This document shows, piece after piece, positions 6,112 through 51,825 of a DNA stretch of 53,551 bases (positions within the stretch are counted from its first letter, which is position 1; every line of letters starts with the position of its first letter). The notes under the pieces were generated by a model that did no database searches, had not been told where the DNA came from, and saw only the letters and a list, made by a program, of their open reading frames with translations. Location: IMG/VR virus record IMGVR_UViG_2859805564_000008. The stretch is one strand, 5' to 3'. This DNA is from a virus (Duplodnaviria; Heunggongvirae; Uroviricota; Caudoviricetes). The position numbers and the translations under genes were made by a program.

Positions 6112-6786
6112 TTAGGCCTTTATTGTGTATCTTCTTGGTTTTCCCGAGAAAATCACTGTACCAATTATAGAGCAATTACCGTTAATCTTAATGTAAGGCT
6201 CAGGCCAGTTTGGGTTTAATGCTTTGAGATAACGCTGTGTTCCATCTTCTATCAATCGCTTGAAGGTGGTTTCGCCTGTATCGTGCATCAATGCAATAAC
6301 GTCGTCACCGTGGCAGGCAGGGACTTCGGGATCAACAAAAATCATGTCTCCAGGGCGGTACTCATCAATCATTGAATCACCAATCACCCGCAAGATATAA
6401 GTCATTTCGCCACAGGGTACAGGGCAGGGATACGTTTCTGCTGTGCTCAAATCAACCTCAGAATAGCCAACTTCTTTCCATGCTCCGGCCTGTACCCATG
6501 ATATGACAGGGACTAACGTTATTTGTTTGTTAGTGATTGAAACATCAGGTTTTTTTGTGATGTTCGTTGTCTGGTGTTCTTGATCAAGCCATCCGACAGG
6601 CAGGTCGAAACATTTTTCGATGTGCCGTGCCATGCTGTCACCGATATTTTTAGTAGCGCCATCCCCCATAAACCTGCTGGTTTGGGTTGGCTCGCGATCA
6701 ATCATGGTGGCAAAGGATGAATTTCCGCCAACACCATCTCTCAGTTTTCTGGCGTTAGACCGCCGGATGTCATGGATTGTTTTCAT
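6112..6786 (-). CDS. cI: CI-type prophage repressor (HTH plus S24 LexA-like peptidase domain)
   Basis: 224 aa; C-terminal GDSM...PGD...KR autocleavage-domain pattern; divergent from cro. Confidence 0.8.
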   Translation of the reverse strand: MKTIHDIRRSNARKLRDGVGGNSSFATMIDREPTQTSRFMGDGATKNIGDSMARHIEKCFDLPVGWLDQEHQTTNITKKPDVSITNKQITLVPVISWVQAGAWKEVGYSEVDLSTAETYPCPVPCGEMTYILRVIGDSMIDEYRPGDMIFVDPEVPACHGDDVIALMHDTGETTFKRLIEDGTQRYLKALNPNWPEPYIKINGNCSIIGTVIFSGKPRRYTIKA

Positions 6787-8016: not shown

Positions 8017-8958
8017 ATGAGCACTAAATTAACCGGCTATGTATGGGATGGTTGCGCTGCATCAGGCATGAAATTATCCAGCGTGGCAATTATGGCCCGC
8101 CTGGCTGATTTCAGTAATGACGAAGGTGTGTGCTGGCCATCAATTGAAACCATTGCCCGTCAGATTGGCGCGGGGATGAGTACCGTCAGAACGGCTATCG
8201 CACGGCTGGAAGCAGAAGGCTGGTTAACGCGTAAGGCGCGTCGCCAGGGTAACCGCAATGCGTCGAATGTTTATCAGCTTAACGTTGCGAAGCTTCAGGC
8301 AGCGGCATTTTCTCAACTGTCAGATTCTGACCCGTCAAAATCTGACGCATCAAAATCTGACACGTCAAAATTTGATGCGTCGAAATCTGGCAAAAAAGCG
8401 GGTTTTCACCCGTCAGAATCTGGCGGGGATCCGTCAGTAAAATCAAAACATGATCCGTCAGATAAAAAACCTTCTCGTCCGGACGCTTCGCAACCGGACA
8501 CGCAGACGGCTGAACAGGATTTTTTAACTCGCCATCCTGATGCGGTTGTATTCAGCCCTAAAAAGCGCCAGTGGGGAACGCAGGATGATTTGACCTGCGC
8601 ACAGTGGCTCTGGAAAAAAATCATTGCCCTGTACGAGCAGGCCGCCGAATGTGACGGCGAGGTGGTTCGTCCCAAAGAACCGAACTGGACAGCATGGGCA
8701 AACGAAATTCGCCTGATGTGTGTGCAGGATGGTCGTACTCACAAACAAATCTGCGAGATGTACAGCCGCGTCAGCCGCGAGCCGTTCTGGTGCCGTAACG
8801 TGCTCAGCCCGTCGAAGTTGCGGGAAAAATGGGATGAGCTTTCCCTGCGCTTATCGCCGTCCGTCAGCACGCACACAGAAAAACGTGAAGACCCGTACTT
8901 CAAAGCCAGTTACGACAACGTGGACTACAGCCAGATCCCGGCAGGATTCAGGGGGTGA
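8017..8958 (+). CDS. replication initiation protein (O-like, winged-helix N-terminus) containing the iteron array
   Basis: 313 aa; N-terminal HTH; in-gene iterons encode the SKSDASKSDTSKFDASKS repeat. Confidence 0.7.
   Translation: MSTKLTGYVWDGCAASGMKLSSVAIMARLADFSNDEGVCWPSIETIARQIGAGMSTVRTAIARLEAEGWLTRKARRQGNRNASNVYQLNVAKLQAAAFSQLSDSDPSKSDASKSDTSKFDASKSGKKAGFHPSESGGDPSVKSKHDPSDKKPSRPDASQPDTQTAEQDFLTRHPDAVVFSPKKRQWGTQDDLTCAQWLWKKIIALYEQAAECDGEVVRPKEPNWTAWANEIRLMCVQDGRTHKQICEMYSRVSREPFWCRNVLSPSKLREKWDELSLRLSPSVSTHTEKREDPYFKASYDNVDYSQIPAGFRG
8320..8470. repeat. iteron array (candidate ori) inside the replication gene
   Basis: At least 6 direct repeats of CCGTCA(A/G)AATCTGAC-like units. Confidence 0.65.
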
Positions 8959-9449
8959 TCATGAGTCTTTTGAATGACGTTCAGAAATTCATTGAAGCCC
9001 ATCCGGGCTGTACTTCCGGAGACATTGCGGATGCTTTTGCAGGTTACTCACGGCAGCGCGTTCTGCAGTCAGCAAGCAAGTTACGTCAGAGTGGGCGTGT
9101 GGCTCACCGTTGTGAAGGAGATACACACAGACATTTCCCGCGCCTGACTGAGAGAGCGCAGGATCCGGAACCACAACCAGTTCGTGAAACCAGACCTGTG
9201 CGCAATTTCTATGTCGGCACTAACGACCCGCGGGTGATTTTGTGCCTGACCCGCCAGGCGGAAGAACTGGAGTCCAGGGGCTTATACCGTCGAGCTGCAA
9301 CGGTGTGGATGGAGGCATTCCGTGAAAGCCACTCCCAGCCAGAACGAAACAATTTTCTGGCGCGTCGTGAGCAGTGTTTACGGAAAAGCAGCAAGCGCGC
9401 TGTATCGGGTGATGAGTGGTATCTGTCAGGGAATTACGTGGGGGCGTAA
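8955..9449 (+). CDS. PerC-like transcriptional regulator domain protein (putative)
   Basis: 164 aa; C-terminal GLYRRAATVWMEAF...RREQCLRK resembles PerC family; overlaps the neighbouring stop/start codons. Confidence 0.4.
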   Translation: MIMSLLNDVQKFIEAHPGCTSGDIADAFAGYSRQRVLQSASKLRQSGRVAHRCEGDTHRHFPRLTERAQDPEPQPVRETRPVRNFYVGTNDPRVILCLTRQAEELESRGLYRRAATVWMEAFRESHSQPERNNFLARREQCLRKSSKRAVSGDEWYLSGNYVGA

Positions 9450-9775
9450 TGACGACGTTAACTCAATGCCAGCAGCAGGTGCTGGATATGCTGATTTCTT
9501 ATCAGAAAGAGCGTGGCTTTCCGCCAACCAATCAGGAGGTGGCAACCATGCTGGGATACCGTTCAGTGAATGCAGCGGTAGAGCATCTTCGCGCACTGGA
9601 GAAAAAAGGCGTCATCACGATAAAGCGTGGCGTGGCCCGGGGGATAACGCTTCATACCGCGGTGAAGGACGACGACAGCGAGGCGGTCGGGATTATCCGC
9701 GCACTGCTTGCCGGTGAGGAAAACGCAAGGCTGCGTGCAACCCACTGGTTACATGAGAGGGGCCTGAAAGTATGA
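9449..9775 (+). CDS. LexA DNA-binding-domain-like protein (no peptidase domain)
   Basis: MTTLTQCQQQVLDMLISYQKERGFPPTNQEVATMLGYRSVNAAVEHLRALEKKGVITI resembles the LexA N-terminal winged helix. Confidence 0.6.
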   Translation: MTTLTQCQQQVLDMLISYQKERGFPPTNQEVATMLGYRSVNAAVEHLRALEKKGVITIKRGVARGITLHTAVKDDDSEAVGIIRALLAGEENARLRATHWLHERGLKV

Positions 9776-10161
9776 AGCTGATCCTGCCTTTTCCGCCCAG
9801 CGTGAACACGTACTGGCGACACCCCAACAAAGGGGCGTTTGCTGGTAAGAGCCTGATAAGCGCGGCGGGGCGCAAATTCCAGAGCGCGGCGTGTGCAGCA
9901 ATAGTTGAGCAGTTACGTCGTCTGCCAAAACCAACGTCGGCACCTGCTTCAGTGGAGATCGTGTTGTTTCCTCCGGATAACCGGATCCGCGATCTGGACA
10001 ACTATAACAAGGCGCTGTTTGACGCCCTGACCCACGCGGGTGTGTGGGAAGACGACAGTCAGGTGAAAAGAATGCTGGTGGAGTGGGGACCGGTTATCCC
10101 GGAAGGGAAGGTCGAGATCACTATCAGTAAGTACGAGAAAACGGCGGGTGCAGCCGCCTGA
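9772..10161 (+). CDS. rusA: RusA-family Holliday junction resolvase
   Basis: 129 aa with PPSVNTYWRH...DLDNYNKALFDALT pattern. Confidence 0.8.
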   Translation: MKLILPFPPSVNTYWRHPNKGAFAGKSLISAAGRKFQSAACAAIVEQLRRLPKPTSAPASVEIVLFPPDNRIRDLDNYNKALFDALTHAGVWEDDSQVKRMLVEWGPVIPEGKVEITISKYEKTAGAAA

Positions 10162-11990: not shown

Positions 11991-12356
11991 GTGATGCGTG
12001 ATATTCAGATGGTTCTGGATCGTTGGGGAGCATGGGCGGCGAGTGATAGTTCAGGAGTAGATTATTCTCCTATAGCTGCTGGGTTTAAAGGGCTTCTTCC
12101 CTATACAAGCAAAACACGTCAGGCTTGTTCAGATAGTGATGCATTAATTATTGAAGGTTGTCTTGCACGTCTAAAGCAAAAAAGACCTGATGAGCATTCG
12201 CTTCTTGTGGCACATTATTTATACAGAATATCCAAGCGTAAGATTGCAAAGGCGCGTGGAAAGGATGAGAAACTAATACGCATTGAGATACAGATGGCTG
12301 AGGGGTTTATTGATGGATGCCTTTCAATTCTGGATATTAAACTTGAAATGGATTAG
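11991..12356 (+). CDS. late-gene antiterminator Q-like protein
   Basis: 121-aa ORF at the end of the nin region, just upstream of the late promoter/terminator region. Confidence 0.55.
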   Translation: MMRDIQMVLDRWGAWAASDSSGVDYSPIAAGFKGLLPYTSKTRQACSDSDALIIEGCLARLKQKRPDEHSLLVAHYLYRISKRKIAKARGKDEKLIRIEIQMAEGFIDGCLSILDIKLEMD

Positions 12357-12361
12357 TGAAA

Positions 12362-12379
12362 CCCCGGCTTAAGCCGGGG
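12362..12379. terminator. palindromic hairpin between convergent Q and NYN genes
   Basis: CCCCGGCTT-AAGCCGGGG perfect dyad overlapping the NYN stop codon; weak U-tracts. Confidence 0.4.
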
Positions 12380-13232
12380 ATGTTTCAGATTGAAGTGTTT
12401 TTTTCTTGGGCTCGTTCTTAGATGATTTTGTTTTCTTTTGACGATTGAGTTTTTTCTCTTTGCGTCTGTCAATATAATCGTCCCACCAATCAGGTTTTAC
12501 TGTTGGGACGATTCTGCAAATATCAGCAATTGCAACAACAATGTTGCTCGATTGCACTCCATCGACGTGCTCTGCCAGTGAGGGAGGAACTTGTTGGTTC
12601 ATTGGATCGAGGATAAAATCCACACCCTTTATACGGGCATGTTTAGCGGCAGGAACGAAATCAGCATCGCCAGCAATCAGGACGATCACATCAACTAGTT
12701 TCTCATGAGCAAGGATAGTTATATCCATACCAAGCTTAATATCGACGGCTTTTTGTTTATATTCGTAGTAGAAATCGTCGTTAGTTAACTCAGACCATTG
12801 AATTTCATTACGTAATAGTTTCTTAAGAGTATGTTCTTTTATTTGCCAGTTACCGACGTTTGAAAGAATACCCATACGAAGTGCCGTTTTACGATTCTTC
12901 CTTAGCTCCTCATGAAGCTTGTTTCGTAAAACATTCGGAGCATGTGTCTTGAAGTTTTTAGTTGATGGGGTTTTGTTGTCTCCATCAGGCAAAGGATACT
13001 TAATCTGTTTATCAAGCGGCGGGCAGTCGTAATAGTAAATACGGTAAAGCTCAAGTGGTTCACGGTCAGCGTGAGCACCATGTGGAACCTCTACATGAAA
13101 TTTAACAATTCGCCAGATTATTTTAACAAGTTGTTGGCTGTCTAACTCATGCCCAGGGAAATGTTTTCGTAGAAAGTAATCAATCCGACGGATGAAGTAG
13201 CCGCCGTCAATCAAGACTGCTGTTTTCTTCAT
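12369..13232 (-). CDS. NYN-domain (PIN-like/LabA-like) putative ribonuclease with Lys-rich C-terminal tail
   Basis: MKKTAVLIDGGYF ... VLIAGDADFVP acidic-residue pattern of NYN domains; C-terminal KKLNRQKKTKSSKNEPKKK; ATG at 13232, track GTG at 13244. Confidence 0.65.
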   Translation of the reverse strand: MKKTAVLIDGGYFIRRIDYFLRKHFPGHELDSQQLVKIIWRIVKFHVEVPHGAHADREPLELYRIYYYDCPPLDKQIKYPLPDGDNKTPSTKNFKTHAPNVLRNKLHEELRKNRKTALRMGILSNVGNWQIKEHTLKKLLRNEIQWSELTNDDFYYEYKQKAVDIKLGMDITILAHEKLVDVIVLIAGDADFVPAAKHARIKGVDFILDPMNQQVPPSLAEHVDGVQSSNIVVAIADICRIVPTVKPDWWDDYIDRRKEKKLNRQKKTKSSKNEPKKKTLQSETSPA

Positions 13233-13244
13233 TGAAAAACTCAC

Positions 13245-13303
13245 AAAAAAAGCTCAGAACCGTTGAGTAGACCCTAAATATTATCTACGAACAGTGCTGA
13301 GCT
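13245..13303 (-). terminator. leader hairpin plus U-tract immediately upstream of the NYN start
   Basis: Minus-strand hairpin (7-bp outer stem AGCTCAG/CTGAGCT, inner GTAGA/TCTAC) followed by U6-7 that abuts the start codon. Confidence 0.4.
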
Positions 13304-13311
13304 GGTGACGC

Positions 13312-13345
13312 AATAATTAACTATTGACATTTGCGTTGTCAACAA
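13312..13345 (-). promoter_or_regulatory. candidate sigma70 promoter driving the NYN gene
   Basis: Minus strand TTGACA - 17 bp - TAATTA, ending ~10 nt before the leader hairpin. Confidence 0.4.
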
Positions 13346-13430
13346 ATTTTGCACTGTTTAAATGTAAATTTTTTCTGCTGTCAACATATAGTGTCATCTT
13401 TGGTATGTTGACACTATATAAACGCTTACG
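13320..13430 (+). promoter_or_regulatory. candidate late promoter region (pR'-like) with repeated TTGACA/TGTCAA motifs
   Basis: Several TTGACA/TGTCAACA motifs and an A/T-rich -10-like TATATAAA between Q and the tR'-like terminator; exact promoter not resolved. Confidence 0.3.
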
Positions 13431-13485
13431 CGGTCCGCAAAAATAATTGTATCATGTTAAGAGTGGTTACTTCGACTCCTTCCTT

Positions 13486-13510
13486 AAAACCGCAGTTGAG
13501 CGGTTTTTTT
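13486..13510 (+). terminator. tR'-like intrinsic terminator
   Basis: AAAACCGC-AGTTGA-GCGGTTTTTTT hairpin with U-run. Confidence 0.65.
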
Positions 13511-13608
13511 GTACCTGTAAACCTGGTGCAGTACAGTAAACACGCTGGTGGTCGTGAATACTGGCTTTTTATCTTGCTGGCTTTTTAGACAAGAGTTATT
13601 GGTATGTC

Positions 13609-13827
13609 ATGTTAACCAGAAGGAAAAAAGACATGCTAAAACAGCAAGATATGACAGAAACGGCGAAAGTTGTTTTTAATGAATTAAGCATCGAACCGGC
13701 AACAGTCGGGGAGATTGCACAAAACACATATCTTTCACGCGAACGCTGTCAGTTAATACTGACCCAGTTGGTTATGGCGGGGCTGGCAGATTACCAGTTC
13801 GGCTGTTACAGACGCCTTCAGCAATGA
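13609..13827 (+). CDS. small hypothetical protein (possible winged-helix regulator)
   Basis: 72-aa ORF between the tR'-like terminator and the methyltransferase gene. Confidence 0.35.
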   Translation: MLTRRKKDMLKQQDMTETAKVVFNELSIEPATVGEIAQNTYLSRERCQLILTQLVMAGLADYQFGCYRRLQQ

Positions 13828-13976: not shown

Positions 13977-15029
13977 ATGAAAAATACTGTAAAAATAAAC
14001 AGTGTTGATTTAATCAACGCTGATTGCCTGCATTTTATTCAGTCCCTGCCTGATGATTCCATTGACCTGATTGTTACCGATCCGCCTTACTTCAAGGTGA
14101 AACCTAACGGTTGGGACAATCAGTGGAAAGGGGACGAAGATTACCTTAAGTGGCTGGACCACTGTCTGGCCCAGTTCTGGCGGGTGTTAAAACCTGCCGG
14201 AAGCCTTTACCTGTTCTGTGGGCATCGCCTGGCATCTGATATTGAGATCATGATGCGTGAACGTTTCAACGTGCTTAACCATATCATCTGGGCGAAGCCG
14301 TCCGGACGTTGGAATGGGTGTAATAAAGAAAGTCTGCGCGCATATTTTCCTGCCACAGAGCGCGTTCTGTTTGCTGAACATTACCAGGGGCCATATCGCG
14401 GCAAAAGTGACGGCTATGCGGCAAAAGAAAGGGAACTCAAACAGCACATAATGGCACCGCTGATATCGTATTTCAGGGATGCTCGTGCCGAAATGGGTAT
14501 AACGGCAAAACAAATTGCCGAAGCCACAGGTAAGAAAAATATGGTTTCCCACTGGTTTGGTGCCAGTCAGTGGCAGTTGCCGAATGAGGCTGACTATCGG
14601 AAGTTACAGGCACTGTTTTCCCGTATAGCGGCAGAGAAGTTTCAGGAACAACAACTGGAACAACCACACCACCAGCTGGTGGCATCTTATGATTCACTGA
14701 ATCGCAAATATTCTGAATTGCTGGATGAGTTTAAATCTCTCCGGCGCTATTTCTCCGTATCAGTCTCCGTGCCTTATACCGATGTCTGGACGCATAAGCC
14801 CGTTCAGTTCTACCCGGGTAAACATCCGTGCGAGAAACCGGCGGATATGCTCCGGCAAATAATCAATGCCAGTAGTCGACCTGGTGATCTGGTTGCTGAT
14901 TTCTTTATGGGATCCGGTTCCACAATAAAAGCAGCAATGGCGCTGGGGCGTCGGGCGTTAGGTGTTGAACTTGAGTCAGAGCGGTTTAATCAGACGGTGA
15001 AAGAGGTAAGTGAACTGGTGGGGAAATAA
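13977..15029 (+). CDS. orphan DNA methyltransferase (beta-class, N6-adenine or N4-cytosine)
   Basis: DPPY catalytic motif (LIVTDPPYF) N-terminal and FxGxG SAM-binding motif (FFMGSGST) C-terminal; no adjacent nuclease gene. Confidence 0.8.
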   Translation: MKNTVKINSVDLINADCLHFIQSLPDDSIDLIVTDPPYFKVKPNGWDNQWKGDEDYLKWLDHCLAQFWRVLKPAGSLYLFCGHRLASDIEIMMRERFNVLNHIIWAKPSGRWNGCNKESLRAYFPATERVLFAEHYQGPYRGKSDGYAAKERELKQHIMAPLISYFRDARAEMGITAKQIAEATGKKNMVSHWFGASQWQLPNEADYRKLQALFSRIAAEKFQEQQLEQPHHQLVASYDSLNRKYSELLDEFKSLRRYFSVSVSVPYTDVWTHKPVQFYPGKHPCEKPADMLRQIINASSRPGDLVADFFMGSGSTIKAAMALGRRALGVELESERFNQTVKEVSELVGK

Positions 15030-16695: not shown

Positions 16696-17010
16696 CTTAT
16701 TATCCTGCATTGTTAAAAACGGCAGAATCCTATGTGACAACAATTAAACGATAGTTAAATGGATTGATGAAAATTAAAACTATATAGGTGTACGGTCAGA
16801 CTATTGGAGGTAGTCAGGATTTGAATGTCAGTCTGTTGTCGGCATTCTGGCAATGCAATTTGGATAAAGCGGGGATTAAAAAGATAGAGGCGAGCCGGTC
16901 AGGTAGAAATGAATCAGGCTCAAAGTGAAGCGGAAAAGGTCTGTGGCACAAACTGATGCTGCCATAATTACAGCCTGATGACTTGTGGAATGAAACATGT
17001 TGAACCTCCT

Positions 17011-17562
17011 TAATTGATGTGATTCGAGTGAGGAAGGCATTCTGTCCTTCTATAGTGTCCAGTAAATCAAACAGGAAGCTTGTCTCACGTGTGAGACAAG
17101 CCTCTCCATTAGCGAGTTGTATTGATTACAACTCTTCAAAGAGTTCATTACTGGGTAGATGAAAATAGTTTCACGACGAATGGAGGAGACTATGTCGGTG
17201 GCTTCTTCATTGGAGTACATATGCTCCCTCGAACCTCAAAAGCATGCCGAGTTCGCGGCTGCCGCCATACCACGACTGACCCGTGTTGAAGCTCCGTAAT
17301 TGATGTTATTCGAGTGAGGAAGGCATTCTGCCCCCCTATACTGTCCAGTAAATCAAACAGGAAACTTGCCTTACGCGTGAGACAAGCCTCTCCCATCAGT
17401 GAGTTGTATTGATCTCGACTCTTCAAAGAATTCATTACTGGGTAGATGAAAATAGTTTCACGATGAATGGAGGAGGCTATGTTGGTGGCTTCTTCATTGG
17501 AGTACATATGCCCCCACGAACCCCAAAAACCTGCCGTGTTCGCGGCTACCGCAATACCACCA
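17011..17562. repeat. tandem duplication of a ~286-bp unit
   Basis: Two ~90% identical direct copies (start ~17011 and ~17297), each with a GTCTCACGTGTGAGAC-type palindrome and a GGAGGAG-ATG small-ORF start. Confidence 0.8.
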
Positions 17563-17837
17563 CAGATCCGTCAGGCTATTGCAAAAGCCACAAAAGCGAA
17601 GGCTGGAAGCAATACAAGCCGGGCCAGTCCTGTCATCAGCGCGGTTATGGTTCGCGGGGTTGTCCCTCATGCTCGCCAGTCCTGTGCGGGGGTGGAAGAA
17701 ACAGGACACTCACACAGATTCTTGTGGGTCGATGCTATTCCTTTCTGGATTATCCCGATGCCATTCATGCAAGGCGCTGTATCAGACGTTCGTCATGGCT
17801 GTCAGGCTGACGGGTCCTCCCGGTGGGGTGGTCTGCC

Positions 17838-42181: not shown

Positions 42182-42542
42182 TCATTGCAAGGGCTCACAA
42201 CCAGTAGTGTTGAGAAAACCATCGGAGAAATGAGGCTAAGCCTTTGAATTTACATAGTACAAAAAAGATACTTTTCCTCATAATGTGAGCTAATTTTATG
42301 TTTCGTTTGATGATTGGACCGGTCTCGAAAACCGTAGACACATAGTATGCGTTAATTTATGAACAAACTACTTGTCTGCTGTTTTTCTGTCATTAGTCGT
42401 ATATAGAATGATTCTCTATGCCTAACAAAGCATCACCAGTGCTAGATTACGTTGTAGTCACTGTTTAAATATCCAGATAAAACATTTCCTTCTGGGTTGA
42501 ATGAGTGATAAAGTTTCACCCATTAGACCCCTTGGAGGAATT

Positions 42543-43976
42543 ATGTCTGAATTTGAAGTGTTGGCACAGCATCTGCTGAAGGAAGCCGAGGCGGAAGAAA
42601 AGTTGCGACAGGAAAATGATAAAAAGCTTATCGAGAAAGTGCTGGAAATCTATGATCAGAAGTATGTGGCTGAATTACTGAGAAAAGTCGGAAAAAATGA
42701 GTGGAGCCGTGAAACCATTAACCGCTGGATTAATGGCAAGTGTTTACCAAAATCGTTGACTTCAGTAGAAGAGTCTCTTCTGCGTAAGATGCTACCAGAA
42801 CCACCTGCAAACCATCCGGAATATGCTTTCCGCTTCATTGACTTATTTGCTGGAATTGGAGGGATACGGAAAGGTTTTGAGGCCATTGGAGGCCAGTGTG
42901 TTTTTACCAGTGAATGGAATAAAGATGCTGTGCGTACATACAAGGCCAACTGGTTTAACGATGAACAGGTGCATAAATTCAATCTCGATATTCGGGAAGT
43001 CACGCTGAGTGATAAAACCGATGTATTGGAAACGGATGCTTATGCATATATTGATGAGCATGTGCCGGATCATGATGTGCTTCTTGCGGGGTTCCCGTGC
43101 CAGCCATTTAGCCTTGCTGGTGTTAGTAAGAAAAACTCACTTGGTCGTGCGCATGGTTTTGAATGTGAAGCACAAGGAACACTTTTTTTTGACGTGGCAC
43201 GTATTATACGAGCAAAAAAACCGGCAATTTTTGTGCTGGAAAATGTCAAAAATCTGAAGAGCCATGATAAGGGTAAAACTTTCAAAGTCATTATGGAGAC
43301 CCTTGACGAGCTGGGCTACGAAGTTGCCGATGCTGCAGAAATGGGAAAAAACGATCCAAAGATTATCGATGGGAAGCATTTTTTGCCTCAGCATCGTGAA
43401 CGCATTGTTCTGGTCGGATTTAGACGAGATCTGAATATTCACAAGGGGTTTACCTTGCGTGATATCAGTCGTTTTTATCCGGAACACCGCCCATCATTTG
43501 GTGAATTGCTGGAGCCTGTAGTCGACAGTAAATATATACTTACGCCAAAACTATGGGAGTACCTTTATAACTACGCCAAAAAGCATGCAGCCAAGGGGAA
43601 TGGTTTTGGCTTTGGGTTGGTCAATCCTGAGAATAAGGAAAGCATTGCACGCACACTTTCTGCCAGATATCACAAAGACGGATCAGAAATTCTTATTGAT
43701 CGTGGTTGGGATATGGCAACGGGAGAGGCTGACTTTATGAATGAGAGTAATCAGGCTCGTCGACCACGCAGGCTGACTCCCCGAGAGTGCGCACGCCTTA
43801 TGGGATTTGAAAAACCTGGAGGGAAACCATTCCGTATTCCGGTTTCAGATACTCAGTCATATCGGCAGTTCGGTAACTCAGTTGTGGTGCCAGTATTTGA
43901 AGCTGTTGCCAGACTTCTGGAACCCTATATCCTCAAAGCTGTTTCTGCTGATGCTGGTAAGACTGGGCAGCCTTGA
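42543..43976 (+). CDS. ecoRIIM: C5-cytosine DNA methyltransferase, Dcm/M.EcoRII type (CCWGG)
   Basis: [12 protein letters not shown] (motif I), GFPCQPFS (motif IV), ENV, QFGNSV; close to M.EcoRII/Dcm throughout; GGAGG RBS before MSEFEV; track ORF starts at 42501. Confidence 0.95.
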
Positions 43977-44010: not shown

Positions 44011-45225
44011 CTATGATAGTTCAGCGTAAAGCTCTATCAGCTCAGTAATGAATGCTCCGAGCGTTATTAATTCTTCTCTAACTGCTTCTGGGTATTTTTT
44101 ATGTAAAGTTGATGGTACAACGAGTCTGACACCCGCATCTTTCATTTCTCGGTATTGTGCTGAAGAAACACCTTCTTGCAGTGTAAATAAATGTACCTGA
44201 TGGATTTTATCTGCTTCATTCAGTATCTGACGCCAGCGATCTTTGCAGGTGGTCTTTACTGCCAGCATACGTAAGTTTTCTACAGGAAATTCAACGTTAT
44301 GATATGCCTCTGCTGAAGGAAACAGGAAATCTGGTTTTTTATTACCTTCAGTTACTGCCTGAGTGGAGAAATGCCGTAGTCCGTGCTCGATAAAAAGCTT
44401 CTCTAGGTGAAGTTCAAGTGATTTGCCTGCCCTTGATTTACGTCGATTACTGACAGAGTTGGCTAATGCAATAAACTCATCTACAGAATCGAATCCTTTC
44501 TTAATAATATCAAGAACATGTAATTCCTCGACGAGTAGAAAAATATCATACTCGACACGCCGACGGTCAATCAGTTGCTCATCTGGATCCTTGGAGTTTT
44601 TAGCATAATGGCCAGCAGCATATTGAATAATTTCGTTTCCAGAAGGAAAACGCTTCTTCCAGTCTTCAGGAATAACATATTTATGATTTACTGGAGTTTG
44701 CTGAAGAGACAATCCGCCCAAAATTTGTCCGGCAGGGCCGGAAATTAGGGTTCCAGGTATGATTTCGCCAATAGCAGACTCGATGATATCCTCTTCATCG
44801 GGATTGACGCAGACCCATATATCTACCTCGGAACAGTCAGTGTTCTGTTCGTTTAACCTGAAAGCAAGAATTGTGAGGGCTCCTGTATTTTCAGGGTTCT
44901 GTAATGGACTTCCTCTCCCCCAGCGCGTAATTCTTTTTTCGTTTCGGGTCTTACCAAAATAACGGTTGTTGTAATAAATTGCGCGTGCTTGGGTATCAGG
45001 GCAATCATGGGATGATACATGCGCAGTAAGGAAGACTGAAGGGTTCAGTTCGCGAGTATGATTGATAGATGGAAAAAGCTTTTCAACGATATTTGAGGGG
45101 ATATAAAGTCCGACCTGATGGCCACCTGTTGCGCCTGTGTCGTTTGCAGAAAGGCGTTTGATGTAGATAAAGTAATTCCCGCTTGCGATATCAAGCAGCC
45201 AGTTATGAAAAACCGACATATACAT
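44011..45225 (-). CDS. ecoRIIR: type IIE restriction endonuclease, EcoRII type
   Basis: 404-aa ORF (MYMSVFHNWLLD...) highly similar to my recollection of R.EcoRII, convergent with the methylase gene; start may be the internal Met at 45219. Confidence 0.9.
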   Translation of the reverse strand: MYMSVFHNWLLDIASGNYFIYIKRLSANDTGATGGHQVGLYIPSNIVEKLFPSINHTRELNPSVFLTAHVSSHDCPDTQARAIYYNNRYFGKTRNEKRITRWGRGSPLQNPENTGALTILAFRLNEQNTDCSEVDIWVCVNPDEEDIIESAIGEIIPGTLISGPAGQILGGLSLQQTPVNHKYVIPEDWKKRFPSGNEIIQYAAGHYAKNSKDPDEQLIDRRRVEYDIFLLVEELHVLDIIKKGFDSVDEFIALANSVSNRRKSRAGKSLELHLEKLFIEHGLRHFSTQAVTEGNKKPDFLFPSAEAYHNVEFPVENLRMLAVKTTCKDRWRQILNEADKIHQVHLFTLQEGVSSAQYREMKDAGVRLVVPSTLHKKYPEAVREELITLGAFITELIELYAELS

Positions 45226-46888: not shown

Positions 46889-46938
46889 ATTCGTAATGCG
46901 AAGGTCGTAGGTTCGACTCCTATTATCGGCACCATTAA
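46889..46938. repeat. attR core (50-bp direct repeat of the thrW 3' half)
   Basis: Identical to 1399-1448; not preceded by the tRNA 5' half. Confidence 0.85.
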
Positions 46939-47539
46939 GAAAATTAATAACTTAGCTTAACTTCTCTAAGAAATTGTATCTTCTGTTATCACTTACAAAC
47001 GCCTATACGTTGTTATGGGCTTTGGTAGTGTAACACGTATGGGCGAGTAGTTCCCAGGCTCAACCTCGTAACAAGTTCCTTTGAAGCTGGAAGACGTGCC
47101 ACCGTCTCTAAACCTTCTACCAAAACTCTTAGCAAGATGTTCCACACCTGGCGCGGTGTCCAATGATGCTACACGTCGTGAGACGTTGCAGAGGATAAAC
47201 AGGCTAAATGATGGGAAGAGTTTTAAGTGCAATAGTGGATTAAAGCCCACCTCTTCAAAACCTAACTTGATCGGGAAAGAATCAAGCTCTAGCACGGTTT
47301 CGTCCACCGGAGTACAACGGGTGCCTGATAAGAGAAGAACTGCTAAGACTTCATAGCTTTTGTGAAAAAGCCCTTTTTAGTGGATACGCCTACGGCGCTT
47401 ATTTTTTGGTATAACCATCAAAGGCGCTTTATGGCTCCTATTGTCTTGAAAATGTATCTTTACTTGTATTGTGTTTTATGCGTAGTCTCCCTGTGTAGTA
47501 TGTAACTTGTTAATTTTCATATGAATACAGAGGCACACG

Positions 47540-48689: not shown

Positions 48690-49508
48690 TTAAGCAGCCA
48701 TCTGATGATATTTTTCCCTGAAGGCTGCCGGGGAGATATTCCCCAGACGAGAGTGACGACGCTGACGATTGTAGAAAATCTCAATGTATTCCCGTATTAC
48801 TGAGATGGCTTCATCCCGGTTATTAAAACGATAGTGGCTCAGGCTCTCATTTTTCAGCGTTCCCCAGAAGCTTTCCATCGGAGCGTTGTCGTAACAGTTA
48901 CCTTTACGCGACATTGATGTTTTCAGACCAGACTGCTCCTGTATGACCCGGTAATCGTATGCGCAGTACTGTGAACCTCGATCAGAGTGGTGGATTAGCC
49001 CGGCAGGTGGGCGCTGGCTCCTGAGCGCCATAAACAGGGCTTTACCTGTCAGCTCTTTTGTCATGCGCTCTCCCATGGCGTAGCCGACAATTTCGCACGT
49101 ATAAACATCTTTGATGCCAGCGAGGTACAACCATCCCTCCTGTGTGGCAACATACGTCAGGTCCGCCACCCAGACCTGATTTGGTGCTGTAGGAGCGAAC
49201 GTCTGGTTCAGCAGATTTGGCGCAACTGGCAGATTGTGGTTCGAGTTCGTAGTCGCTCTGAACTTGCGTTTCTGCTTACAGCGTAGCCTTAGCTCCTTAC
49301 GAAGACGTGCCAGTCGGTCACGACCAACAATGATGCCATTCTCTGCCAGCTCCGTCTGGAGCCGCCGGGTTCCATATGTTTCGCGAGTGCGGATATGTGC
49401 CACCTTAATCTCCAGTTTTAGCCGCTCATCACTTTGTTTTCTGTCTGAGGGTTCATGCTGTACCCAGTTGTAATAACCGCTCCTGGATACACCAAATACC
49501 TGACACAT
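48690..49508 (-). CDS. IS3-family transposase OrfB (DDE catalytic domain)
   Basis: 272 aa with integrase-core motifs (VWVADLTY...HSDRGSQY...NAPMESF). Confidence 0.85.
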   Translation of the reverse strand: MCQVFGVSRSGYYNWVQHEPSDRKQSDERLKLEIKVAHIRTRETYGTRRLQTELAENGIIVGRDRLARLRKELRLRCKQKRKFRATTNSNHNLPVAPNLLNQTFAPTAPNQVWVADLTYVATQEGWLYLAGIKDVYTCEIVGYAMGERMTKELTGKALFMALRSQRPPAGLIHHSDRGSQYCAYDYRVIQEQSGLKTSMSRKGNCYDNAPMESFWGTLKNESLSHYRFNNRDEAISVIREYIEIFYNRQRRHSRLGNISPAAFREKYHQMAA

Positions 49509-50384: not shown

Positions 50385-51825
50385 CACAGTGAACTAGGGG
50401 TAGGTCATAGTGAACTACCCCCACAGAATTCTGTTACCCCTATCAAGTCTGATACCCCTATCAAAACTGATACCCGATAAGTATAAATAACACCTAAATA
50501 GCTGCGCGGAATAGTAGATCACTTTGAGGGAACTTAGCCCGGATTGTGCGATCTGATCAATCGCCAAATCAAAACAAATCACCAACCGGACTGAGCAATG
50601 CCGATCATAGCACCAATTTCCCGTGACGAACGACGCCTGATGCAGAAAGCCATCCATAAAACACACGATAAAAATTATGCCCGCAGACTGACTGCCATGC
50701 TGATGCTGCACCGGGGCGACCGTGTCAGCGACGTTGCCAGAACGCTCTGCTGCGCCCGTTCCTCTGTTGGACGCTGGATTAACTGGTTCACGCAGTCGGG
50801 TGTTGAGGGACTGAAATCATTACCTGCCGGGCGTGCCCGTCGCTGGCCGTTTGAGCATATCTGCACACTGTTACGTGAGCTGGTAAAACATTCTCCCGGC
50901 GACTTTGGCTACCAGCGTTCACGCTGGAGTACAGAACTGCTGGCAATAAAAATCAATGAGATAACCGGTTGCCAGTTAAATGCCGGAACCGTTCGCCGCT
51001 GGTTGCCGTCTGCGGGGATTGTGTGGCGAAGGGCTGCGCCAACTCTGCGTATCCGTGACCCGCATAAAGATGAAAAGATGGCAGCAATCCATAAAGCACT
51101 GGACGAATGCAGCGCAGAGCATCCGGTCTTTTATGAAGATGAAGTGGATATCCATCTTAATCCCAAAATCGGTGCGGACTGGCAACTGCGCGGACAGCAA
51201 AAACGGGTGGTCACGCCGGGACAGAATGAAAAATATTATCTGGCCGGAGCGCTGCACAGCGGGACAGGTAAAGTCAGCTGTGTGGGCGGCAACAGCAAAA
51301 GTTCGGCGCTGTTCATCAGCCTGCTGAAGCGGCTTAAAGCGACATACCGTCGGGCGAAAACCATCACGCTGATCGTGGACAACTACATTATCCACAAAAG
51401 CCGGGAAACACAGAGCTGGCTGAAGGAGAACCCGAAGTTCAGGGTCATTTATCAGCCGGTTTACTCGCCATGGGTGAATCATGTTGAACGGCTATGGCAG
51501 GCACTTCACGACACAATAACGCGTAATCATCAGTGCAGCTCAATGTGGCAACTGTTGAAAAAAGTTCGCCATTTTATGGAAACCGTCAGCCCATTCCCCG
51601 GAGGCAAACATGGGCTGGCAAAAGTGTAGCGGTATTAAGCGCAGCTATTTAGGAAATGATTTCCGATCTATTTAGGAAGTAACCTAGGAAGTGGTTTCCT
51701 ACCTACTTAGGAAATGACTTCCACCAATACTATAATTAAATACTATAAATAATATTCTTTATACTATATAGGTCACTGTGAACTAGGGGGGTAGTTCACT
51801 ATGAGCTAGGGGGTAGGTCACTGTG
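50385..51825 (+). mobile_element. IS630-family insertion sequence (putative; ends approximate)
   Basis: Transposase flanked by ~40-bp imperfect inverted repeats beginning CACAGTGA; right end abuts IS1. Confidence 0.55.
50598..51629 (+). CDS. IS630-family transposase
   Basis: 343 aa, N-terminal HTH, C-terminal DDE-type region. Confidence 0.85.
   Translation: MPIIAPISRDERRLMQKAIHKTHDKNYARRLTAMLMLHRGDRVSDVARTLCCARSSVGRWINWFTQSGVEGLKSLPAGRARRWPFEHICTLLRELVKHSPGDFGYQRSRWSTELLAIKINEITGCQLNAGTVRRWLPSAGIVWRRAAPTLRIRDPHKDEKMAAIHKALDECSAEHPVFYEDEVDIHLNPKIGADWQLRGQQKRVVTPGQNEKYYLAGALHSGTGKVSCVGGNSKSSALFISLLKRLKATYRRAKTITLIVDNYIIHKSRETQSWLKENPKFRVIYQPVYSPWVNHVERLWQALHDTITRNHQCSSMWQLLKKVRHFMETVSPFPGGKHGLAKV

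Follow-up and report, generated by a model that had tools for sequence, protein, structure and literature searches.

Why should a temperate phage carry the DNA-binding domain of LexA without the domain through which activated RecA brings about LexA self-cleavage? The question is raised by a gene at positions 9449-9775 of the IMG/VR virus record IMGVR_UViG_2859805564_000008, a stretch of 53,551 nucleotides (the window) that contains a lambdoid prophage. Its product, a protein of 108 amino acids, is a phage-encoded truncated LexA homologue, and the gene is already annotated and very common; what is new here is a conserved helical tail, the family-wide retention of base-contact residues, a fixed place beside the Holliday junction resolvase gene rusA, and the occurrence of strong SOS boxes here and in close relatives. 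Arguing from sequence, a structural model and analogy, we suggest that the protein may be a RecA-insensitive LexA surrogate that would bind SOS boxes during lytic growth, a reading that we hold tentatively and would place a little short of probable. The gene and the parts of its product are the following.

9440..9444, plus strand: Shine-Dalgarno-like GGGGG run, 4 nt 5' of the ATG of the gene, read from the sequence.
9449..9775, plus strand: gene for the LexA-type DNA-binding domain (LexA-DBD) protein of the SfV orf42 / PHROG 362 family, stop codon included, from the list of open reading frames (ORFs) and the sequence.
9449..9652, plus strand: residues 1-68, LexA-type winged helix-turn-helix; AlphaFold places helices at 6-22, 28-35 and 40-52 and strands at 56-58 and 66-68.
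9566..9604, plus strand: residues 40-52, recognition helix VNAAVEHLRALEK, from the alignment to 1lea; together with S39 it holds the LexA contact positions.
9668..9757, plus strand: residues 74-103, AlphaFold-predicted two-helix hairpin (helices 74-88 and 93-103) in place of the S24 domain.

The similarity to LexA is far beyond chance. The Pfam profile LexA_DNA_bind (PF01726) is matched end to end, by residues 1-65 against positions 1-65 of 65 (E 2.9e-19; 69 bits, with a cut-off of 23.7), and the best phmmer match in the PDB is the E. coli LexA DNA-binding domain 1lea (E 6e-16, residues 2-70), followed more weakly by other solved LexA structures (8s7g, E 1.4e-12; Thermotoga 3k2z, E 4e-6). An AlphaFold2 model of the 108-aa protein was made from a 23-sequence family alignment and has a mean predicted local distance difference test score (pLDDT) of 84; Foldseek superposes its N-terminal domain on LexA in the operator-DNA complex 3jso_B with a root-mean-square deviation (rmsd) of 1.0 A over 68 residues, at 50% identity. 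Compared by BLASTP with the complete E. coli LexA, the protein is 43% identical across residues 1-90 and shows no similarity past that, and the NCBIfam lexA equivalog TIGR00498 scores 70.5 bits, below its cut-off of 110.95, covering profile positions 1-91 of 203. Pfam finds no match to Peptidase_S24 (PF00717) in the 108-aa protein, whereas the cI repressor of the same prophage (6112-6786) does match it. The chain stops after the two helices of residues 74-103, at residue 108, with neither the S24 peptidase/dimerization domain nor the Ser119-Lys156 dyad. The loss of the autocleavage domain is real, and by protease domain, catalytic dyad and curated score threshold alike the protein is not a LexA.

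An earlier note on this DNA, made from its letters, had described at exactly these coordinates an ORF of about 108 amino acids resembling the N-terminal winged helix of LexA and lacking the S24 autocleavage domain, and the PF01726 and 3jso_B matches, the missing Peptidase_S24 match and the end of the chain bear it out. It also took the gene to be phage-encoded, and the gene does lie inside the prophage. Its description of a standalone DNA-binding domain was correct as to the missing S24 domain, but the protein is not a bare domain, since a conserved C-terminal helical hairpin is present. Its functional suggestion, that the protein could sit on LexA boxes out of reach of RecA and modulate SOS or induction, is compatible with the evidence.

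Are the residues by which LexA reads its operator still there? LexA residues S39, N41, A42, E44 and E45 contact DNA (PMC3091678). An alignment at these positions, which the earlier note had proposed as a check, shows S39, N41, A42 and E45 to be identical in the phage protein (four of the five), with E44 replaced by V, and the LexA wing residues R64 and G65 are also retained. Across 88 distinct family proteins, the sample for all conservation counts given here, S39, K53, R64, G65 and I66 are invariant (88/88), and N41, A43 and A42 are retained in 87, 85 and 81 proteins respectively.

The hairpin that stands where LexA has its S24 domain is predicted with a pLDDT of about 90, falling below 50 in the linker at 71-74. 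The tail is conserved in relatives down to about 40% identity at I82, I83, L86, L87, G89, A93, R94, A97, W100, L101 and G105, and its consensus across the family, from the alignments and the 88 distinct proteins, is EAVxIIRALLAGEENARxRAxxWLHERG. We infer that the hairpin, within the last 35 residues, is a replacement dimerization element; being amphipathic in the model, it could form a four-helix-bundle dimer.

How might such a protein act? The LexA DNA-binding domain alone binds operators poorly; it can repress at LexA operators only if a self-associating partner is fused to it, and LexA two-hybrid systems are built on this (PMC12369361). A LexA DNA-binding domain joined to a new dimerizing element is therefore a sufficient design. 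In the mechanism that we propose, the LexA-type winged helix, with the residues that read the CTGT half-site, would be paired by the hairpin serving as dimerization element in place of the S24 domain, and activated RecA would be unable to switch the protein off, as there is no catalytic Ser/Lys domain. Transcribed with the early-right (pR, nin-like) operon, it would be made only after the S24-type repressor of the prophage had been cleaved. With a repressor of the S24 class, the prophage should enter lytic growth chiefly by SOS induction, and the timing of synthesis would coincide with the destruction of host LexA. The protein would then occupy CTGT-N8-ACAG operators and re-silence LexA-controlled promoters, whether those of the phage's own SOS-box genes (the methylases here, and in relatives a KilA-N gene and a box within cI) or those of SOS genes of the host or of rival elements. 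The pay-offs could be the re-silencing of its own SOS-controlled genes, a limit on mutagenic polymerases, and a block on the LexA-controlled antirepressors, toxins and colicins of competitors.

Candidate targets lie in the prophage itself. They were scored with a position weight matrix (PWM) from 22 E. coli SOS boxes, which gives approximate scores, and the background was 200 shuffles, of which the best score was 18.6.

13985..14004, no strand assigned: strong SOS (LexA) box TACTGTAAAAATAAACAGTG, candidate cis target; PWM score 22.5, the sole exact CTGT-N8-ACAG in the window.
42459..42478, no strand assigned: SOS-like box CACTGTTTAAATATCCAGAT, inside the prophage; PWM score 18.6, 22 bp 5' of an EcoRII-type C5 methylase gene.

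The first box spans codons 3-10 of an N6/N4 DNA methylase ORF (13977-15029), which comes after a small ORF (13609-13827; 72 amino acids, no family match) and 3' of the presumed late promoter/terminator region. Citrobacter phage phiNP has the identical box, and Klebsiella phage Kp4866-6 has another valid form of it, the CCAG-type variant TACTGTAAAAATATCCAGCA, even though the surrounding sequence has diverged by 12-15%. Conservation of an intra-coding operator across genera suggests that the methylase may be under SOS control. The second box precedes the C5 methylase ORF 42501-43976 on the plus strand, which has Pfam DNA_methylase and EcoRII domains and faces a convergent EcoRII endonuclease gene (44011-45225, minus strand). 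The prophage carries this EcoRII-type restriction-modification pair as cargo at its right end, in a stretch without a match in the phage collection. Both strong SOS boxes of the window sit at methylase genes.

Relatives were scanned in the same way, as 80 IMG/VR loci with a near-identical gene, for boxes scoring at least 18 within 10 kb, and at least one such box was found in 47 of them. Three boxes recur: the methylase box, a box internal to cI, and a box between rusA and a gene for a KilA-N-domain protein. The cI-internal box is perfect, TACTGTTTTTA[C/T]ATACAGTA, and lies in the linker-coding part of the gene for a 230-aa cI-like repressor in 26/80 loci, for example at L005:5540-5559 (cI-like gene L005:5076-5768, minus strand) and at L012:4642-4661; the cI of this prophage has no such box. 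A possible role for the cI-internal box is the control of an internal or antisense promoter. The intergenic box, TACTGTATTTATGAACAGTG, is found in 10/80 loci (L008:10765-10784); here just about 20 bp separate rusA from the KilA-N gene, with no box between them. Judged by sequence, the layout at these loci is that of a LexA-controlled antirepressor-like gene. The LexA-DBD gene itself is present in 66 of the 68 related loci with the methylase box and in 53 of the 59 with the cI-internal box.

Several observations weigh against SOS boxes as the targets. The loci in which gene and boxes co-occur are 98-100% identical lineages in which the two are physically linked, and rusA co-occurs equally well; linkage explains much of the association because the loci belong to such lineages. 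Phage phiNP has the methylase box and no LexA-DBD homologue within 16 kb, and in the clade of 44%-identical homologues a strong SOS box within 10 kb occurs in only about 8 of 80 loci. In the protein itself R28 of LexA is N; in the family, 81 of the 88 members have A or V at position 44 and none has E, and at position 45 E occurs in 61 and A in 21. In a Citrobacter subclade of 66-68% identity (Citrobacter sp. FP75, L177:4870-5187; cluster P0086) the recognition helix reads RSVNTITGHL versus RSVNAAVEHL and the tail is kept, as if specificity had changed naturally in this branch of the family. Because positions 44 and 45 vary and the Citrobacter helix is rewritten as NTITGH, specificity can drift, and it may differ between family members. 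Finally, gp6 of phage GIL01, the sole characterized truncated phage LexA homologue that we found, works as an activator and does so from a non-LexA-box site (PMC6182141), which shows that SOS-box binding is not the only conceivable role. The cis boxes are neither universal nor dependent on the gene; they are plausible targets in this lineage and do not define the family. The idea of an obligatory cis target was rejected, the boxes being frequent in the E. coli clade (47/80) and rare in the 44%-identity clade (about 8/80).

Could the protein then be a phage-specific transcription factor of the gp6 kind, derived from LexA but with its own operator, activating or timing late or nin-region phage genes and leaving SOS boxes alone? 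We consider this unlikely. The gp6 protein activates the late promoter P3 from a site that overlaps the -35 (PMC6182141), and a comparable role would accommodate the change at position 44 throughout the family, the variable E45, the subclade with a rewritten recognition helix and the absence of a nearby SOS box at most loci of the 44%-identity clade; a new dimerization element could, moreover, impose another half-site spacing. Other observations speak against it. S39, N41 and A42 have stayed nearly invariant and the same as in LexA, and a scan of the prophage for CTGT/ACAG half-sites in other inverted, everted or direct arrangements, with spacers of 0-20 bp, showed no enrichment. No conserved candidate operator was found beside the gene, and tblastn with the 108-aa protein gave no Bacillus tectivirus record, so that past the common domain no closeness to phages of that kind is detectable.

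The timing that the LexA surrogate would require depends on the position of its gene. The rightward early (nin-like) operon runs in the order cro-like, cII-like, O-like, PerC-like, LexA-DBD, rusA, KilA-N, DUF968 and Q, and its landmarks, with the repressor and integrase genes, are these.

1459-2622: integrase.
6112-6786: S24-type cI repressor (Pfam).
8017-8958: O-like replication gene.
8955..9449, plus strand: PerC-like/YfdN gene, upstream in the same operon (Pfam PerC E 3.7e-10; PHROG 1324).
9772..10161, plus strand: rusA, RusA Holliday-junction resolvase, downstream and translationally coupled (Pfam RusA E 6e-15).
11991-12356: Q.

The ATG of the LexA-DBD gene overlaps the TAA of the PerC-like ORF (TAATG) and its stop codon overlaps the start of rusA (ATGA, 9772-9775). 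No promoter-like site was found directly upstream; SfV has an annotated dam promoter that is weak and that has a different -35 in this prophage. Because start and stop codons overlap and no promoter-like site lies directly upstream, the gene can be assigned to the early operon, where it stands after the replication gene and before Q, and the simplest inference is that it would be expressed with the delayed-early genes after inactivation of the repressor. In SfV (L180:6351-7004) and most relatives a Dam methylase cassette stands between the PerC-like and LexA-DBD genes; here it is absent exactly at the TAATGA junction (9445-9452). The order is otherwise durable. In the 44%-identity clade rusA is directly 3' of the homologue in 90/90 loci and DUF968 is present in 87/90; rusA has the same place in SfV and mEp390. 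In mEp390, with a homologue 47% identical, the order replication gene, LexA-DBD, rusA, DUF968, Q is kept and the LexA-DBD gene comes directly after the O-like gene.

Does this constancy point to a partner? The protein might be a DNA-binding accessory of the neighbouring recombination or replication genes, one that targets or modulates RusA or the DUF968 HNH-like nuclease or acts at the origin, and not a transcriptional regulator at all. To us this appears rather improbable. The unbroken adjacency to rusA, the usual presence of DUF968 downstream and the position right after the O-like gene in mEp390 would suit it, as might the divergence of the LexA-DBD protein in the 44%-identity clade, which at 44% identity has changed faster than RusA (75%) or DUF968 (65%) of the same loci. 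Unrelated nin-region cassettes, however, are normally packed in this way, in close succession with stop codons overlapping starts, and the Dam cassette has been inserted or is absent at the exact adjoining gene junctions. A structural-partner role would also leave the retained LexA base-reading residues unexplained.

A further feature of the tail has to be weighed. The segment AVGIIRALLAGE is aligned by both HMMER and BLAST to the LexA cleavage-site region LPLVGRVAAGE, and A88-G89 falls on the LexA cleavage site A84-G85, yet the model puts this dipeptide at the turn that joins the two helices, and 64 of the 88 family proteins have S at position 88. Self-cleavage is not expected because there is no protease domain, and we treat the resemblance as a vestige or coincidence. 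A cleavage-site decoy was considered and rejected: position 88 is variable, the surrounding segment is not kept and the dipeptide is in a predicted helix turn. The same alignment is part of what could make the protein an antagonist of LexA, competing for half-sites without repressing, or contacting LexA or RecA through its tail, and so derepressing or prolonging the SOS response in favour of induction; the weak operator binding of isolated LexA DNA-binding domains, which need a partner for repression (PMC12369361), would be in keeping with this. We think an antagonist improbable, since the variable A, the turn and the unconserved segment speak against a decoy, the conserved amphipathic hairpin fits self-association better, and the gene would be made after induction had already happened.

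Is the gene functional at all? The plus-strand ORF 9449-9775 runs from an ATG to a TGA and encodes the 108 residues MTTLTQCQQQVLDMLISYQKERGFPPTNQEVATMLGYRSVNAAVEHLRALEKKGVITIKRGVARGITLHTAVKDDDSEAVGIIRALLAGEENARLRATHWLHERGLKV. An alternative in-frame GTG at 9416 would lengthen it; the ATG at 9449 is preferred because MTTLT/MKALT is where LexA and every homologue start. In comparisons with homologues of 46-68% identity the proportion of nonsynonymous differences (pN) is 0.19-0.36 and that of synonymous differences (pS) is saturated at 0.77-0.85. By this comparison the gene is under purifying selection, and as pN is well below saturated pS it is a functional coding sequence and not a lexA fragment. 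That it is a decaying, functionless remnant of a captured lexA, which its likeness to a truncated lexA product and the frameshifted lexA fragments among database entries with LexA-like C-termini might bring to mind, is effectively refuted by this selection, by the conserved family-specific tail, by a length steady at 106-108 amino acids, by fixed synteny and by intact copies in 2233 genomes.

The prophage that carries the gene is about 45.5 kb long and lies at thrW, with a tRNA-Thr(CGT) at 1369-1444 and a proA-like gene adjoining at 1-1254. Its attachment (att) sites are direct repeats of 59 nt at 1399-1457 and 46889-46947, 45.5 kb apart, and past attR there are insertion sequence-type transposase genes (48690-49508 and 50598-51629). 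A reverse-strand gene for an NYN-domain protein (12369-13244, minus strand) is inserted between Q and the late region, and after it (13290-13520) come a cluster of TTGACA/TGTCAA inverted repeats at about 13320-13420 and a tR'-like terminator at about 13475-13510. Farther on, 3' of the lysis genes, about 287 bp are tandemly duplicated (16988-17571, copies 88-89% identical).

How widely would a role in the SOS response be felt? The protein matches phrog_362 ("transcriptional repressor") with E 1.2e-59, residues 1-108 against profile positions 1-106 of 106. Of 5426 complete E. coli genomes, 2233 have a copy 95-100% identical in nucleotide sequence, which PGAP labels "LexA family transcriptional regulator". 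Such a copy also occurs in about 50 phage records, among them SfV (orf42, "unknown"), SfII, SfIV, mEp460, cdtI and several Stx2a/Stx2c converting phages; 'LexA DNA binding domain protein' is a further annotation in the SfV/mEp460/SfII group. Close relatives are found in Citrobacter, Salmonella and Hafnia, a scan of species-representative genomes turned up only 5 loci, and full-length relatives reach down to 40-53% identity, for example mEp390 gp43. In the literature searched no functional study of the enterobacterial PHROG 362 / SfV orf42 family was found. Some database proteins are fusions of Dam with the LexA-type domain (P0025, P0092, P0098), and several of 140-350 amino acids have tandem LexA-type DNA-binding domains (P0132, P0133, P0148, P0151, P0153 and others), which, on their domain content, would be another way to pair such domains without an S24 domain.

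With the gene in so many genomes, any effect that it has would be widespread. If the protein rebinds SOS boxes after the loss of LexA, the temperate phages that infect E. coli and Shigella would possess a simple means of ending or remodelling the DNA-damage response of their host from the inside, with a bearing on prophage competition, mutagenesis during induction and the induction of Shiga-toxin phages. The boldest form of the proposal, that some 40% of E. coli genomes, among them genomes with Stx2a/Stx2c phages, carry a RecA-proof 'second LexA' that shuts down the SOS regulon after induction, is in our judgement doubtful. Were it true, the antirepressors of rival prophages, SOS-induced toxins, colicins, defences and mutagenic polymerases would be silenced, and the induction kinetics and toxin output of polylysogens would be shaped by it. 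The LexA surrogate would also be a natural case of a dimerization-module swap on a LexA DNA-binding domain; a gp6-like, phage-specific regulator would instead extend a rare class to the lambdoid phages of Gram-negative bacteria. The idea will not surprise a specialist; it is the prevalence of the gene, Stx phages included, and the ease of a decisive test that give it weight.

How does the protein compare with known systems? With the E. coli LexA DNA-binding domain (1lea, 3jso) it shares the fold, at 1.0 A rmsd and 50% identity over about 68 residues, and identical S39, N41, A42, E45, R64 and G65. Unlike E. coli LexA, it has no S24 domain and no Ser119/Lys156, has V for E44 and N for R28, continues after the linker into a family-specific helical hairpin, and is encoded in a phage early operon and not at the lexA locus. 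The noninducible (Ind-) LexA mutants, such as G85D in 1jhf and S119A in 1jhh, offer a functional parallel, as by its sequence the phage protein too would be expected to bind LexA operators and to escape inactivation by activated RecA. The mutants are, however, full-length proteins that keep the native dimer, and the phage protein, known from sequence and a model, is without the whole protease domain.

The phage parallels are of two kinds. The genes of SfV (orf42), mEp460 and SfII are 95-100% identical in nucleotide sequence and have the same place beside rusA, and there is no sequence difference in kind; most of these phages differ from the present prophage in having the Dam methylase cassette immediately 5' of the gene, and their records hold annotation only. 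The gp6 protein of the Bacillus thuringiensis tectivirus GIL01 (PMC6182141) is likewise a phage-encoded truncated LexA homologue, essentially a DNA-binding domain, and the nearest analogue that has been characterized. It differs in activating the late promoter P3 at a non-LexA-box site, and its phage, a Gram-positive tectivirus, uses host LexA with gp7 as repressor. No Bacillus phage is among the 63 tblastn matches of the 108-aa protein (E <= 1e-3), a search in which the gp6 sequence was not compared directly, and given this the two truncations are probably independent. The architecture is also that of the engineered LexA-DBD two-hybrid fusions (PMC12369361), in which a LexA DNA-binding domain and a heterologous self-associating module suffice for repression at LexA operators. 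Those fusions are artificial, whereas the module of the phage protein is a natural, conserved tail of about 30 residues with a putative role in self-association.

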